Shown here: piece by piece, positions 20,925 through 24,730 of the stretch | Numbering within the stretch: the first letter of the stretch is position 1 | Layout of the letters: each line of letters opens with the position of its first letter | Origin: an uncultured Thermoplasmata archaeon | GTDB lineage: Archaea; Thermoplasmatota; Thermoplasmata; RBG-16-68-12 | Reading direction: 5' to 3' | NCBI GenBank assembly: GCA_963768855.1 | Contig: CAVYJM010000024.1 | Span: 1-24,730 of the forward strand | DNA: 24,730 bases | Translations under genes and position numbers: made by a program | The notes under the pieces: generated by a model | Told to the model about the DNA's origin: nothing | The model's database searches: none | What the model saw: the letters and a program-made list of their open reading frames with translations, nothing else

Positions 20925-22688
20925 ATGAAACCGCTCCTCGCCGTCCGCGGACTGAAGACCGAGTTCGCGACCACGCACGGCACCGTCCGCGCGGTCGACG
21001 GCGTGGACCTGGAAATCGGGGAAGGCGAGGTGGTCGGACTCGTGGGGGAAAGCGGATGCGGGAAGTCCGTCACGGCGCTGTCCGTCATGTACCTCATCCC
21101 CCAGCCGCCGGGCCGGATCGCGGACGGCGAGATCTGGTTCAAGGACTTGGACCTCCTCGCGGGGGGGACCGACGAGGTCGTGGTCAAGAAGAGGCGTAAG
21201 GGTCGCCTGAAGCTCGTTCGTCGCGATGCCCTCATCGACCGACACCAGGCCCGGATGAGCAAGATCCGAGGCCGGGAAATCTCCATGATCTTCCAGGAAC
21301 CCATGTCGTCCTTGAACCCCGTCCTCCCTGTGGGCTATCAGGTTGCGGAGGTTCTCCTCTACCAGCGGCGGAGGCAGATCTGCGACGGCATCCTTTCACG
21401 CAAGGAGCTGGGGCCTGAGAATCTCAAGCGGTTCGAACAAATGGTGGCCACGGTGGATCCCACGGACCGCGAGCACCGCCTGGCGGAGTTCTGCGTGGAG
21501 AGCGGCTTGTCCGCGGACAAGGTCTCCGCGATCGCCAACGATTCGAAGCGCTCGATGAAGGAGAAACTCGAGGCGATCCGAACGCTCGGGGAACGCCGGC
21601 GCGTGGGGAGCCGGTGGTTCATCAACCTGATGAAGCGGCTCGACATCCTCGAGACGGAGCGCGCGACTCGCGAATGGCAAGCGCTCTCCCACACGACCCT
21701 CGCGAAGAACGCGATGCAGGCGTTCGACCCGTCCCGCAACCCGAAGGCCTCGGGCCTACCACCCCTCGCCAAAGTGTCCTTGCAGGCGGACGCCGTCCGC
21801 TTGGCGTTCCGGGTGCCGCCCACGGAGGAGCACCGGTCGCTCGTGGACGAAATCGTGAGGGACGTGGCCCAGGAGCCGGAGGGGGCGGCCTTCCGACTCG
21901 TGCGGAAGGTGTCCCTCGCCGCAGAGGGCATCGACCTGACCTTCGCCGAGGGAGAGGCCACGAGCTTCATGCATGAAACGGAGTACCGATCCCGGAGCCT
22001 CCTGTACCGTCTCCTCATGTTCATTCCCCTCCTGCGAGCCCGACTCATGAAGCCCTTGGAAGAGGAGGCCCGGCGGCAGGTTCTGGACCTGCTCAAGCTC
22101 GTGCGCATCCCGGAGCCCAGCAAGATGTACCGCGAGTACCCCCACGAACTGAGTGGCGGGATGCAGCAACGGGTGATGATCGCCATGGCCCTGGCTTGCG
22201 ACCCCGCCCTCATGATCGCGGACGAGCCGACGACGTCCCTGGACGTGACGACCCAGGTGCAGATCCTGAAGCTCATCCGAGACCTCCGCGCGAGGGTCAA
22301 CTCCGCCATCCTGTACATCACTCACGACCTCGCCGTGATCGCGGAACTGTGCGATCGCGTGGCCGTGATGTATGCGGGCAAGATCGTCGAGGACGCGCCG
22401 GTGAACGAGCTGTTCGCGCACCCTCTTCACCCGTACACCCAGGGTCTCCTCGAATCCATCGTCTCCATGGACTCGTTGAAGGTCGAGGTGGGCGCCCACC
22501 TCCCGACGATCCCGGGGACCGTGCCCGACCTGATCGACCCGCCGAAGGGCTGCCGCTTCCATCCCCGCTGCAAGTACGCGTTCGAACGATGCAAAATCGA
22601 GGATCCCCAGCTCCTCGGCCGGGGCAGCGTCCACAAGGTGGCGTGTCATCTCTACGATGAAGGAGGGTCTCGTGGTCCTGATGCGTGA
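20925..22688 (+). CDS. dppD: DppD/OppD-family ABC ATPase with a ~230-aa insertion (587 aa)
   Basis: GESGCGKS, MIFQEPMSSLNP, YPHELSGGMQQR, MIADEPTTSLDVT, YITHDL and C-terminal GCRFHPRC...C...ACHLY. Confidence 0.92.
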   Translation: MKPLLAVRGLKTEFATTHGTVRAVDGVDLEIGEGEVVGLVGESGCGKSVTALSVMYLIPQPPGRIADGEIWFKDLDLLAGGTDEVVVKKRRKGRLKLVRRDALIDRHQARMSKIRGREISMIFQEPMSSLNPVLPVGYQVAEVLLYQRRRQICDGILSRKELGPENLKRFEQMVATVDPTDREHRLAEFCVESGLSADKVSAIANDSKRSMKEKLEAIRTLGERRRVGSRWFINLMKRLDILETERATREWQALSHTTLAKNAMQAFDPSRNPKASGLPPLAKVSLQADAVRLAFRVPPTEEHRSLVDEIVRDVAQEPEGAAFRLVRKVSLAAEGIDLTFAEGEATSFMHETEYRSRSLLYRLLMFIPLLRARLMKPLEEEARRQVLDLLKLVRIPEPSKMYREYPHELSGGMQQRVMIAMALACDPALMIADEPTTSLDVTTQVQILKLIRDLRARVNSAILYITHDLAVIAELCDRVAVMYAGKIVEDAPVNELFAHPLHPYTQGLLESIVSMDSLKVEVGAHLPTIPGTVPDLIDPPKGCRFHPRCKYAFERCKIEDPQLLGRGSVHKVACHLYDEGGSRGPDA

Positions 22689-24567
22689 GGTCCAGGGAGA
22701 GGTGCTGATCGCTGCCGAAGGGCTGCGAAAACACTTCCCCGTCCGGGGAGGCTTCCTCCAGCGGGAGACGGCTCGCGTCCGGGCGGTGGATGGCGTCAAC
22801 CTGGCGATCCACCAAGGCGAGACCTTGGCCCTCGTCGGGGAGAGCGGTTGCGGCAAGACGACGCTTGGCCGGCTCCTCCTCCGGGTGATCGAGCCCACCG
22901 AGGGGGATGTGTTCTATGACGTTCCGGGGGACGAGTACCTCCGGTACAGAGACGGTCGAAGACGATCCAGGGAAACGGGGTCCGGCCCGCAGTCCGAGGA
23001 CTTCGAACAAAAGTATGCCATTACGAGGAGGGACCGCCTCACGGAGGCCGGGCATCTTCGACGGTCGCTTCTGCTCGCGCTGGCCGCGGCGACACTCGCC
23101 TCCCTCGTTGTCCCTTCCCTTCTCATGGTCGTCGCGGGATTGCCCTTCGACAATCTCTGGGCGGTCATCGGTTTCGGGATCCTCGTAGGAGTCCTCGCGG
23201 GGATCGTAGGTTCATTCCTCCTGACCGCGAGCATGGCGCGCTTTCCCGCCATCCTCGCAGGGATTGCTCTCGTGATGGTGAATGTGGACACGGTCCTCGC
23301 GCAGTGGATCGGTTCCGGTCTCGTTGGAGGAGGCCCGTTCGATGCGGGGACCGCCTATGTAGCCGCGTGGGAGGCGGGGAGCGTCGGAATGATCCTCGCC
23401 ATCCTCCTGGCTCCCATCGCTGCGGACGCGTGCGCCCGGGTCTTCCTCAGGTACGTGCGACGCGCGGCGCGATCCACCCATCACCGGCTCCGGACCATCC
23501 GCCGAGACATGCAGTCCGTCTTCCAAGATCCGTTCACCTCCCTGGACCCGCGGATGCTCGTGAAGGACATCGTCATGGAACCCATCCTGGTCAACCGGCT
23601 CATGGCACGAGCGGAGGCCGAAGAACGGGCGGCGGCCCTCCTTCAGGAAGTCGGGCTCCGGCCGGATTACCTGTATCGCTTTCCCCACGAATTCTCGGGA
23701 GGGCAGAGACAGCGAATCGCGGTGGCCCGGGCCTTGGCGCCCAGCCCCAAGTTCCTCCTCCTGGACGAGCCCACGTCGGCCCTGGACGTGTCCGTCCAGG
23801 CTCAGATCCTCAACCTGCTGAAGGACATCCAGCAGCAACAGGGGTTGACGTATCTGCTGATCACCCACAACCTCAGCGTCGTCAAGCAGATGGCGGACCG
23901 CGTCGCCGTCATGTACCTGGGGAAGATCGCCGAGCAGGCGGCGACGGCCGAGCTCTTCGAATCGCCCCTCCATCCCTATACGAGAGCCTTGCTCTCGGCG
24001 GTGCCCGTTCCCGACCCGAGACGGACGGCGGGACCGGATCATCCTCCCGGGAGATGTCCCGAGCCCCATGGACCCGCCGTCGGGATGCCGCTTCCACACC
24101 CGATGCCCCGCGGTGCTCCCCGTGTGCGGCTGGGGTCCGAAGGACATGGCTCCCCTGGCGAGGCATCTCTTCGACGCCTCGAGCAACCCGAAGGCCGTGG
24201 GGCTGCCGCCGCTGGAGGAGGTGTCCATCAAAGGACAGAGGCTCCGCCTCCTCTTCGGGAAGGCGCAGCCGACGGACGGCGAGCGGAAGCTGGTGGAGGC
24301 CCTCGTGAACGAGCAGCAGGGAGACGGCCCCTACAAGATCATGTTCCAAGCGGTGCGCCGAGTGTCCCTCCACGATTCCTCGATCGACCTGGAGTTCCTT
24401 CCCCGCGCGAACCGGAGATGATCGAGGTGACCCCACGACACGAATGCGCCTGTTTCCTGTTCCCGACGGGCGTGAAGGGCGAGTCCGTCTGGGGGCCTGA
24501 AGGTCCACCTGGAGACGTGGAGGTGGGCGGCACCCCGCTTCCGTCGGTGGACGTGGCGGGAGGATAG
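22672..24567 (+). CDS. dppF: DppF/OppF-family ABC ATPase with an inserted 4-TM domain and an inserted C-terminal domain; two compensating frameshifts (about 24025 and 24405)
   Basis: [49 protein letters not shown] and [14 protein letters not shown]. The C-terminal motif continues in the +1 frame ([24 protein letters not shown]) and returns to the original frame for [16 protein letters not shown] 22672 follows GGAGG; ATG 22681 is an alternative start. Confidence 0.9.
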
Positions 24568-24571
24568 GGGC

Positions 24572-24730
24572 TCAGACGATCCGACGATGGTGGCGGAGAA
24601 TCTCGACCACCTCGGGGACCGGGAGCTCCGGCGACGTGTTCCCATCCCGGCCGACGACGGTCTCCGCGGTGAACAGGGAGTCCACGATGGCCTCTTCGGT
24701 CGCTTCGACGGCGGCCAGGAAGAGCGAATC
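24572..24730 (-). CDS. C-terminal end of a P1/S58 (DmpA-like) aminopeptidase; the gene runs off the window
   Basis: The minus-strand frame reads DSLFLAAVEATEEAIVDSLFTAETVVGRDGNTSPELPVPEVVEILRHHRRIV*. This matches the DmpA-family C-terminal pattern LF.AA.EATEEAI.NAL..AET..GRDG. Confidence 0.75.
   Translation of the reverse strand, partial: DSLFLAAVEATEEAIVDSLFTAETVVGRDGNTSPELPVPEVVEILRHHRRIV

Follow-up and report, generated by a model that had tools for sequence, protein, structure and literature searches.

In a 24,730-nucleotide (nt) stretch of an uncultured Thermoplasmata archaeon (GenBank assembly GCA_963768855.1, contig CAVYJM010000024.1), referred to here as the window, both ATPase subunits of a peptide importer, DppD and DppF, contain a copy of the same small domain, inserted at non-equivalent sites of the two proteins. 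The genes of a SBP_bac_5 and PKD binding protein and of two BPD_transp_1 permeases lie upstream of those of the ATPases in the operon, and on the basis of this family-5 binding protein, the two permeases and their own ABC_tran and oligo_HPY domains, DppD and DppF are assigned to the Opp/Dpp-type peptide importer ATPases. The best explanation as a whole, held with slightly better than even confidence, is that the inserted domain (hereafter the module) is a lineage-restricted accessory domain that was copied from DppF into DppD and that, we infer, serves docking or coupling on the iron-sulfur (Fe-S) domain. The accessory-domain family and its architecture are new, while the Opp/Dpp transporter class itself is known.

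A first-pass annotation of this DNA, made by reading the sequence alone, had proposed that a unit of about 75 amino acids (aa) is shared by the two ATPases, with about 34 identities over 76 positions counted by hand. The same count was returned by BLASTP over the whole length of the two cores (34/76 identities, 46/76 positives, 2 gaps, E=3e-18), and both of the quoted translations were exact. The core of the unit stands as described, while its true extent is nearer 90 aa, with a conserved helix before FDxSxNP in both copies. The motif [KER]VS[LI]xxxx[VLI][RD]LxF, said to occur twice per copy, was found so by direct reading, and the stretches in question are the two β-hairpins of the AlphaFold2 (AF2) model described below. 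Moderate support was obtained for the internal pseudo-repeat suggested by this motif, the profile of the N-terminal half of the module matching that of the C-terminal half with an hhalign E-value of 2.9e-5 and a probability of 74%; the module thus plausibly resembles an internal duplication of a helix-hairpin unit. At the DNA level, the match between the copies is limited to 57 nt encoding the FDxSxNPKAxGLPPL motif (74% identity), and in a codon alignment the two copies show 54% DNA identity overall, with 44% of third codon positions identical. Since only these 57 nt match and third positions have diverged to this degree, the duplication is old, and neither a recent repeat nor the result of gene conversion.

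The sites of the two copies agree with those originally proposed. In DppF, the module lies in the C-terminal Cys domain, between Cys3 (CGW) and Cys4 (HECAC); the intact protein matches the Pfam families ABC_tran (6e-29) and oligo_HPY (3e-19), its C-terminal domain also carries the HPYT motif, and Cys4, located about 108 residues after Cys3, aligns with an H-x-V-A-C ending in all aligned relatives. In DppD, which matches ABC_tran (PF00005, 1e-22) and oligo_HPY (PF08352, 2e-18) and has OppD/DppD as its best NCBIfam model, the module occupies residues 267-340, after the Q-loop (FQEP, 123-126) and ahead of the signature motif (LSGGM, 409-413). The Cys residues of DppD are spaced C-x5-C-x6-C-x17-C, and the HPYT motif is present. 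Judged by this Cys pattern, both ATPases carry a putative [4Fe-4S] C-terminal domain, that of DppF with an extended Cys3-Cys4 gap.

The DppF copy had initially been read in a separate open reading frame (ORF), 24068-24421, which is in a different frame from the long dppF ORF; with a GC content at third codon positions (GC3) of about 0.9, long spurious ORFs are common. These circumstances would suit an artefact, namely a chance or low-complexity likeness of out-of-frame GC-rich ORFs, a recent DNA repeat or a mobile element, an explanation that we consider so improbable that it can be discounted. It is refuted by the homology and low DNA identity of the copies reported above, by the canonical Cys motif that frame 2 also restores, by an uninterrupted frame 2 both in another copy of the operon and in related metagenome contigs, and by the conservation of the module in DppF relatives with at least 82% coverage of the query region. 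ORF 24068-24421 is not a gene but the middle of dppF, shifted by two one-base indels: ORF 22657-24567 is open throughout, and between about 24025 and 24405 the meaningful frame is that of ORF 24068-24421. The indels compensate (+1, then -1) about 380 nt apart and shift the frame of the Cys1-3 motif and of the module. In the same assembly, the copy on contig C21 (P0028, 631 aa) is uninterrupted through the Cys motif, the module and the C-terminal end. Contigs of three public wetland metagenome runs (X1, X2 and X3) were additionally placed on the window. Every covering contig of runs X2 and X3 has one base fewer at the first site, the extra base at the second site is present in about 15 of a depth of 22-28 in X1 and in all of the depth in X2 and X3, and one 785-nt contig spans both sites with exactly two gaps. 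The occurrence of the intact gene in these contigs indicates that related natural populations carry an intact dppF, and the simplest account of the two indels of the window is that the consensus is probably wrong here, close to a repeated end of the contig; a strain-specific pseudogene is the less likely account.

The structure of the module was predicted by AF2 on an alignment (A3) of 45 DppD-type and DppF-type sequences. Modelled alone, it reached a mean predicted local distance difference test score (pLDDT) of 84.8 and a predicted template modelling score (pTM) of 0.74, and inside the full-length DppD model its pLDDT was 84-94; both segments are predicted to be well folded rather than unfolded. 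In the model of the module, DSSP assigns a helix at 2-12, a short helix at 19-23, strands at 27-32 and 36-41, a helix at 47-61, a short helix at 68-71, and strands at 72-77 and 81-86, giving a predicted topology of helix, β-hairpin, helix, β-hairpin. The most conserved positions across the DppD and DppF sets of the alignment are F13, P19, P25, L27, L39 and R50, most of which are located in the loop FDxSRNPxAxxLPxL, preceding strand 1. Mean pairwise identity of the module is 48% in both the DppD and DppF families, exceeding that of the DppF C-terminal tail (26%), with values of 52-63% for the arm helices of DppD and 41% for a membrane insert of DppF.

No named family was recognised in the first-pass annotation, and this assessment was borne out by searches of Pfam, NCBIfam and PDB sequences. 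Pfam at E<=10, queried with both modules and wider contexts, yielded nothing, including no ACT, NIL, TOBE or Arg_repressor_C; the modules were without a match in NCBIfam; and a PDB sequence profile search gave chance rows only (E>=0.7). No confident match to a characterised domain routine in Opp/Dpp ATPases was found, and a literature search for such an insert in these ATPases, and for DUF8228, found no description of either. Among structures, Foldseek against the PDB produced nothing at E<=0.001, with a best E of about 0.1. Its top rows were the C-terminal domain of ArgR/AhrC, a weak match (probability 0.96, E 0.1-0.5, template modelling (TM) score 0.44-0.53, 9-14% identity); ArgR also appeared in one ESM Atlas row (TM 0.50), had no PF02863 match in Pfam, and was not at the top of an independent structural alignment with VIA. 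In the latter, run against 48,161 chains, the best Z was 7.2 (AlaX-M), within the background of the tool, which states a typical best Z of 7-8 for unrelated small domains; further neighbours were HAD C2 caps, AlaRS (Z 5.8), and ThrRS and RRF (Z 5.3). The nearest named ESM Atlas clusters by shape and features were DUF8228, the first periplasmic domain of SecD, PTS EIIB and ArgR, all below threshold, the clusters partly labelled DUF8228 having scores of 0.80-0.85 and a TM of 0.55 and serving as a lead only. The predicted fold type therefore seems ordinary, and its neighbours match in α-β2-α-β2 order only, without a specific relationship. An ACT/NIL-like fold, as in the MetN C2 domain, was rejected as a candidate, the ferredoxin-like order β-α-β-β-α-β differing from the predicted order H,(h),E,E,H,(h),E,E.

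The arginine-binding ArgR/AhrC domain nevertheless raises the alternative that the module senses a ligand, binding a cytoplasmic amino acid or peptide and locking the ATPases by trans-inhibition, as the C2 domain of MetN or the TOBE domain of ModC does. Small two-layer α/β domains on importer ATPases often act in this manner (MetNI, ModBC, MalK), the polar loop D-x-S-R-N-P is kept in both the DppD and DppF copies, and the operon adjoins an S58 aminopeptidase gene, which makes products of peptide breakdown plausible effectors. We regard ligand sensing as rather unlikely, since ArgR matches only weakly (E about 0.1, TM 0.46-0.53) and is not top in VIA, the sensor families named above are undetected by sequence, and the polar loop is lacking in the divergent modules called type B below. 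Furthermore, known sensors of this kind are dimers across identical subunits, whereas most of the transporters considered here have a single module.

In searches with profiles and hidden Markov models (HMMs), the family proved to be small and to consist almost entirely of Opp/Dpp ATPases. An exhaustive profile search of 1.84 billion protein cluster representatives at E<=0.001 found 16 clusters, of which 15 are Opp/Dpp ATPases or fragments thereof. The sixteenth (P0159), a highly repetitive metagenomic protein of 1123 aa with six weak matches (summed E=1.7e-5), is probably spurious; its matches fall on the strand-helix part of the module profile. A word-based search found 25 DppD clusters that keep the whole insertion, down to 42% identity. 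The module is also present in the DppF relatives that cover at least 82% of the query region (24 aligned), several of these relatives being named as Thermoplasmata or Methanobacteriota archaeon. Of 301 sampled genomes belonging to the class of the window, 35 carry the module; they fall into three families (11/16, 5/10 and 18/33 genomes), and two matches per operon, one in each ATPase, are confined to the window's genus. In a 401-genome sample of the phylum, matches occurred only in one family (f24) of the same class and in the window's own genome. Among those sampled, the module is restricted to one archaeal class, and named matches belong to Thermoplasmata. The window's genome has about 13 Opp/Dpp operons, with the window-type module only in the window-type operon, which is present three times in the assembly. 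No natural DppD-DppF fusion with the module was found among matches of up to 1105 aa, and a search of genome contigs with generic ABC motifs recovered ordinary Opp/Dpp loci across the tree, which is uninformative for the module.

The history of the two copies was reconstructed from a maximum-likelihood (ML) tree of 45 modules, rooted on the most divergent DppF modules, in which all copies from DppD group in a single clade (support 95/96) that lies within the diversity of the DppF copies. The DppF module of locus L090 branches outside the group holding all DppD modules (support 81/85); at this locus the module is present in DppF, and the helical arm of the DppD (P0163, 503 aa) ends in only a short Gly/Pro loop. 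L103 and L104, from the two other families, are arranged likewise, except that their coiled-coil arms are longer. At L089, DppD has the arm and the module, and a 453-aa DppF has the module; the window operon shows the L089 arrangement with the addition of the membrane insert in DppF. As the tree and the phyletic pattern agree, the DppF site is taken as ancestral, and the DppD copy arose once, from DppF to DppD, into a pre-existing arm. The DppD copy is best read, on these grounds, as a single later lineage-specific duplicate of an older DppF domain, within the window's genus only. The claim that both ATPases share the module is accordingly retained, while the implied picture of equal partners is not, the DppF copy being ancestral and widespread and the DppD copy a later arrival.

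A more divergent form of the module, type B, is an insert of 75-95 aa directly after CGW in DppF-type paralogues on contigs C6 and C11 of the same genome. These inserts were undetected by the module HMM even at E<=10. A type-B profile (the C6 and C11 inserts with P0095, P0096, P0099 and P0161) matched the window-type profile over 86 columns with an hhalign probability of 94% (E=9e-8), and a type-B-only HMM picks up window-type DppF modules in relatives at E of about 1e-6 to 1e-5; by these profile matches, type B is assigned as homologous to the window-type module. It occurs in 22 of the 301 class genomes, among them every one of the 12 sampled from the window's genus. A plain 322-aa DppD without an arm partners some type-B DppF proteins (C6, C11, L110), and in a sister genus (g2) and two metagenomic operons DppD, too, contains a type-B module, located in its C-terminal domain after CGW and before HxVxC. 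These operons lie at L105:1815-5451 (genus g2), L108:2846-6533 and L109:3089-6728, and their helical-subdomain insertions hold Zn-ribbon-like CxxC...CxxC or CxxH...CPVCG elements. When the copies in DppD C-terminal domains were added to a larger module tree, its resolution did not suffice to place them. The presence of the module in both ATPases has arisen in two architectures, one with C-terminal domain and C-terminal domain, the other with arm tip and C-terminal domain. Two further observations are recorded: the P0175 arm contains a possible module-like segment (i-E 0.058 only), which is not claimed, and an ORF on C4 ends shortly past a CGW motif and an acidic helix and may be a truncated module-bearing gene.

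The arm that received the DppD copy is an insertion of the helical subdomain, modelled at pLDDT 72-94 in the full-length AF2 model of DppD. From a base (residues 164-223), a 37-residue helix (230-266) leads up to the module (273-339), and two helices (347-366 and 368-392) lead back down, so that the module is predicted at the tip of an antiparallel helical arm. Zero indels were found within the arm helices of 20 aligned DppD relatives. The arm is present without the module in relatives P0163, L103 and L104, and what relatives have at the arm tip ranges from a plain loop or a long coiled coil to a Zn-ribbon-like CxxC...CxxC element. In P0021, a metagenomic DppD relative, two modules follow one another at the tip of the arm in residues 255-434 (HMM E=6e-31 and 7e-27); these tandem matches show that the unit duplicates as a cassette. 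With these copies and the varied sites across relatives, the earlier description of a mobile module retained in both subunits proved right. Other Opp/Dpp ATPases on contigs C6 and C8 of the window's assembly (G000) have Q-loop-to-signature insertions of 159, 173 and 193 residues, compared with about 57, without the module.

Such tolerance of insertions suits a second alternative, that of passive decoration, in which the insert stabilises or shields the DppF Fe-S loop (e.g. against oxidation) and the DppD copy is a tolerated by-product of intra-operon duplication with no role in interaction. The Cys3-Cys4 loop and the arm tip are both especially prone to insertions, haloarchaeal ATPases have an unrelated helical insert between Cys2 and Cys3, the elements at the arm tip vary among relatives with tandem modules tolerated in P0021, and the module is fast-evolving. 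On the other hand, it is kept in three families, its DppD copy persists in 25 clusters despite their divergence, the loop motif is common to DppD and DppF copies in differing hosts, and the presence in both subunits was reached via at least two routes. Overall, passive decoration is judged to be of low probability.

In the favoured explanation, docking or coupling, the module would enlarge the Fe-S domain and provide it with a surface for docking to other proteins. Where both subunits carry it, the two copies may form a pseudo-symmetric pair on the cytoplasmic side, and this pair might tether or couple the two nucleotide-binding domains (NBDs) through the ATP cycle, like the C-terminal domains of MalK or MetN, with the loop FDxSRNPxAxxLPxL as a possible contact or effector site. 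This explanation is favoured because the host Fe-S domain is an assembly element in solved systems, because the loop motif is kept in the DppD and DppF copies despite their different hosts, because both subunits gained a copy by two independent routes, and because the arm helices are free of indels, as would be the case if the tip had to arrive at a fixed position. The shared loop motif suggests that the two copies bind a common partner, or one another, instead of packing against the host. The two routes constitute circumstantial backing for a paired role in those lineages. A more specific version, considered improbable, is an inter-subunit clamp of a kind not yet described for a type I ABC importer, in which the Fe-S-loop module of DppF would dock to its own copy on the partner's arm (in the sister genus, on the partner's Fe-S domain), linking the state of the cluster or a cytoplasmic signal to NBD closure.

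Several observations weigh against docking or coupling. In most lineages DppF alone carries the module, in some of them beside the plain 322-aa armless DppD, and since most module-bearing transporters are single-copy, pairing cannot be the ancestral or general role. The RNP loop motif is missing from type-B modules and is thus not needed for the fold, and the role ascribed to the loop is a guess. Additionally, the NBD core has a mean pairwise identity of 74-89%, so that the module evolves much faster than the catalytic core, and the catalytic NBD core of the full-length DppD model is poor (mean pLDDT 68, from a shallow alignment). With respect to these identities, the module behaves as a constrained yet fast-evolving accessory domain.

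The coordinates of the features of the window discussed above are compiled in Table 1.

Table 1. Features of the dppD-dppF region (positions within the window)
Feature	Position	Strand	Description
dppD	20925..22688	+	587 aa; Opp/Dpp-type ABC ATPase by sequence; normal four-Cys C-terminal domain
DppD helical-subdomain insertion	21342..22109	+	about 255 aa, residues ~140-395; predicted helical base and antiparallel helical hairpin (arm)
DppD module copy	21687..21956	+	residues 255-344; core 21723-21944; predicted at arm tip; HMM match 21687-21953, E=3e-36
dppF	22657..24567	+	interrupted in this assembly, frame 1 to 2 to 1; intact form 631 aa
First dppF frameshift	24021..24026	+	one extra base relative to the other copies (alignment of three assembly copies)
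Cys1-Cys3 of putative [4Fe-4S] site, DppF	24086..24127	+	frame 2, direct reading; C-x5-C-x6-C
DppF module copy	24134..24403	+	core 24170-24397; nested between Cys3 and Cys4; HMM match 24137-24406, E=9e-34
Second dppF frameshift	24401..24404	+	run of 4 C; other copies 5 bases (CCCCC or CCTCC); restores frame 1
CAC of HECAC motif, DppF	24445..24453	+	frame 1; last Cys 24451-24453, presumed fourth cluster ligand

Beyond the module, DppF has an insertion of about 170 aa, containing four hydrophobic helices, that separates Walker A from the Q-loop (residues ~120-275, 22921-23487), the spacing between these motifs being 228 residues compared with about 50 normally. Similar long insertions, with spacings of 224 and 267, occur in the DppF-type paralogues at C6:767024-769321 and C11:277393-279261 of G000, and this membrane insert is missing from many 450-480-aa orthologues that retain the module. 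The 3' end of a Peptidase_S58 (DmpA-type aminopeptidase) gene, at 24568-24730 on the minus strand, converges on dppF, as is also seen at L007:1-1245, and a Peptidase_S58 homologue adjoins the C11 paralogue operon; such a neighbour fits peptide uptake coupled to peptide breakdown. The three copies of the operon in the assembly are about 92-96% identical and are located on C24 (the window), C23:82-5677 and C21:105000-113500, with indels that differ per copy: the dppF on C23 has a different one-base insertion, and the dppD on C21 is split over several frames. C21 and C22 also share a near-identical pair of other Opp ATPase genes. This redundancy, together with a contamination of 7.7%, suggests either strain-variant redundancy or real paralogues with an error-prone consensus.

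Accessory domains of importer ATPases, such as those of MalK, MetN, ModC and OpuA, are how cells throttle nutrient uptake. The module defines an unnamed domain family, confidently folding by prediction, inside the Opp/Dpp Fe-S site, and provides a clear case of a domain copied between the subunits of one complex into a different site. Its natural architecture series, comprising DppF only, both C-terminal domains, the DppF C-terminal domain with the DppD arm tip, and tandem copies, offers concrete constructs for asking what the region of the Fe-S domain does. The family is small and limited to uncultured or little-studied archaea, and its immediate impact is modest.

Within the Opp/Dpp class, no accessory element other than the Fe-S C-terminal domain is described, and what this domain does apart from assembly is still open (PMC12136057). 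The ligands of its [4Fe-4S] cluster are spaced C-x5-C-x6-C-x16/17-C, corresponding to C293, C299, C306 and C323 in E. coli DppF and to C284, C290, C297 and C315 in DppD (PMC12136057). The domain is needed for the assembly and stability of the translocator in E. coli and M. tuberculosis, and Cys-to-Ser mutants or oxidation cause DppBCDF to dissociate (PMC12136057). The window DppD has the Cys spacing of E. coli DppD, and the C-x5-C-x6-C of the window DppF equals Cys1-3 of E. coli DppF. Whereas Cys3 and Cys4 are 16-17 residues apart in the solved Opp/Dpp ATPases (E. coli DppD/DppF and M. tuberculosis OppD), the distance in the window DppF is about 108, with a domain of about 90 aa, predicted to be folded, nested in between.

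Haloarchaeal Opp/Dpp ATPases (PF26679, DUF8228) likewise have an extra 80-110 aa or so within the Cys motif. The haloarchaeal insert is helical-looking and precedes Cys3, whereas the module follows it; in haloarchaeal fused DppD-DppF proteins (P0108-P0139), the insert is present in the second C-terminal domain. Identity with DUF8228 (PF26679) was rejected, the module profile aligning with the haloarchaeal insert alignment at an hhalign E of 0.83. In precomputed annotations PF26679 is listed for haloarchaeal proteins and for no module-bearing protein; membership was judged indirectly, from these annotations and the hhalign comparison. The haloarchaeal proteins are concluded to carry a distinct element next to the site used by the module, and the Cys loop of archaeal Opp/Dpp ATPases is a recurrent insertion site.

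Insertions between the Q-loop and the signature motif are also a feature of SMC and Rad50, in which coiled coils lead to the hinge or zinc hook, and of the arm of ABC-F proteins such as EttA. The DppD arm shares with these families, as general traits and with no match claimed, the position and the design, in which two antiparallel helices form a hairpin tipped by a functional element. It differs from them in being much shorter (about 37-45 residues per helix), in belonging to a transport ATPase and in having at its tip a copy of a domain of the partner subunit. Regarding the fold, the same order of elements is found in the editing modules of AlaX, AlaRS and ThrRS, domain II of RRF, HAD C2 caps and the C-terminal domain of ArgR; these α-β(2)-α-β(2) folds, with VIA Z of 7.2 to 5.2, Foldseek TM of about 0.5 and 8-14% identity, have no functional residues in common with the module.

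The regulatory domains of MetN, ModC and MalK pair across both subunits and keep the nucleotide-binding domains held or locked. The module has no relationship in sequence to the C2 domain of MetN or the TOBE domains of ModC and MalK, and its predicted topology differs both from the β-α-β-β-α-β order of C2 and from the β-barrel of TOBE. Furthermore, the module is nested in a domain or placed on an arm rather than appended, with its copies at non-equivalent sites. Although they differ in these respects, the C2/NIL domain of MetN and the TOBE-type domains of ModC and MalK are likewise small domains on the cytoplasmic side of importer ATPases, and they provide the closest functional analogy for the module.

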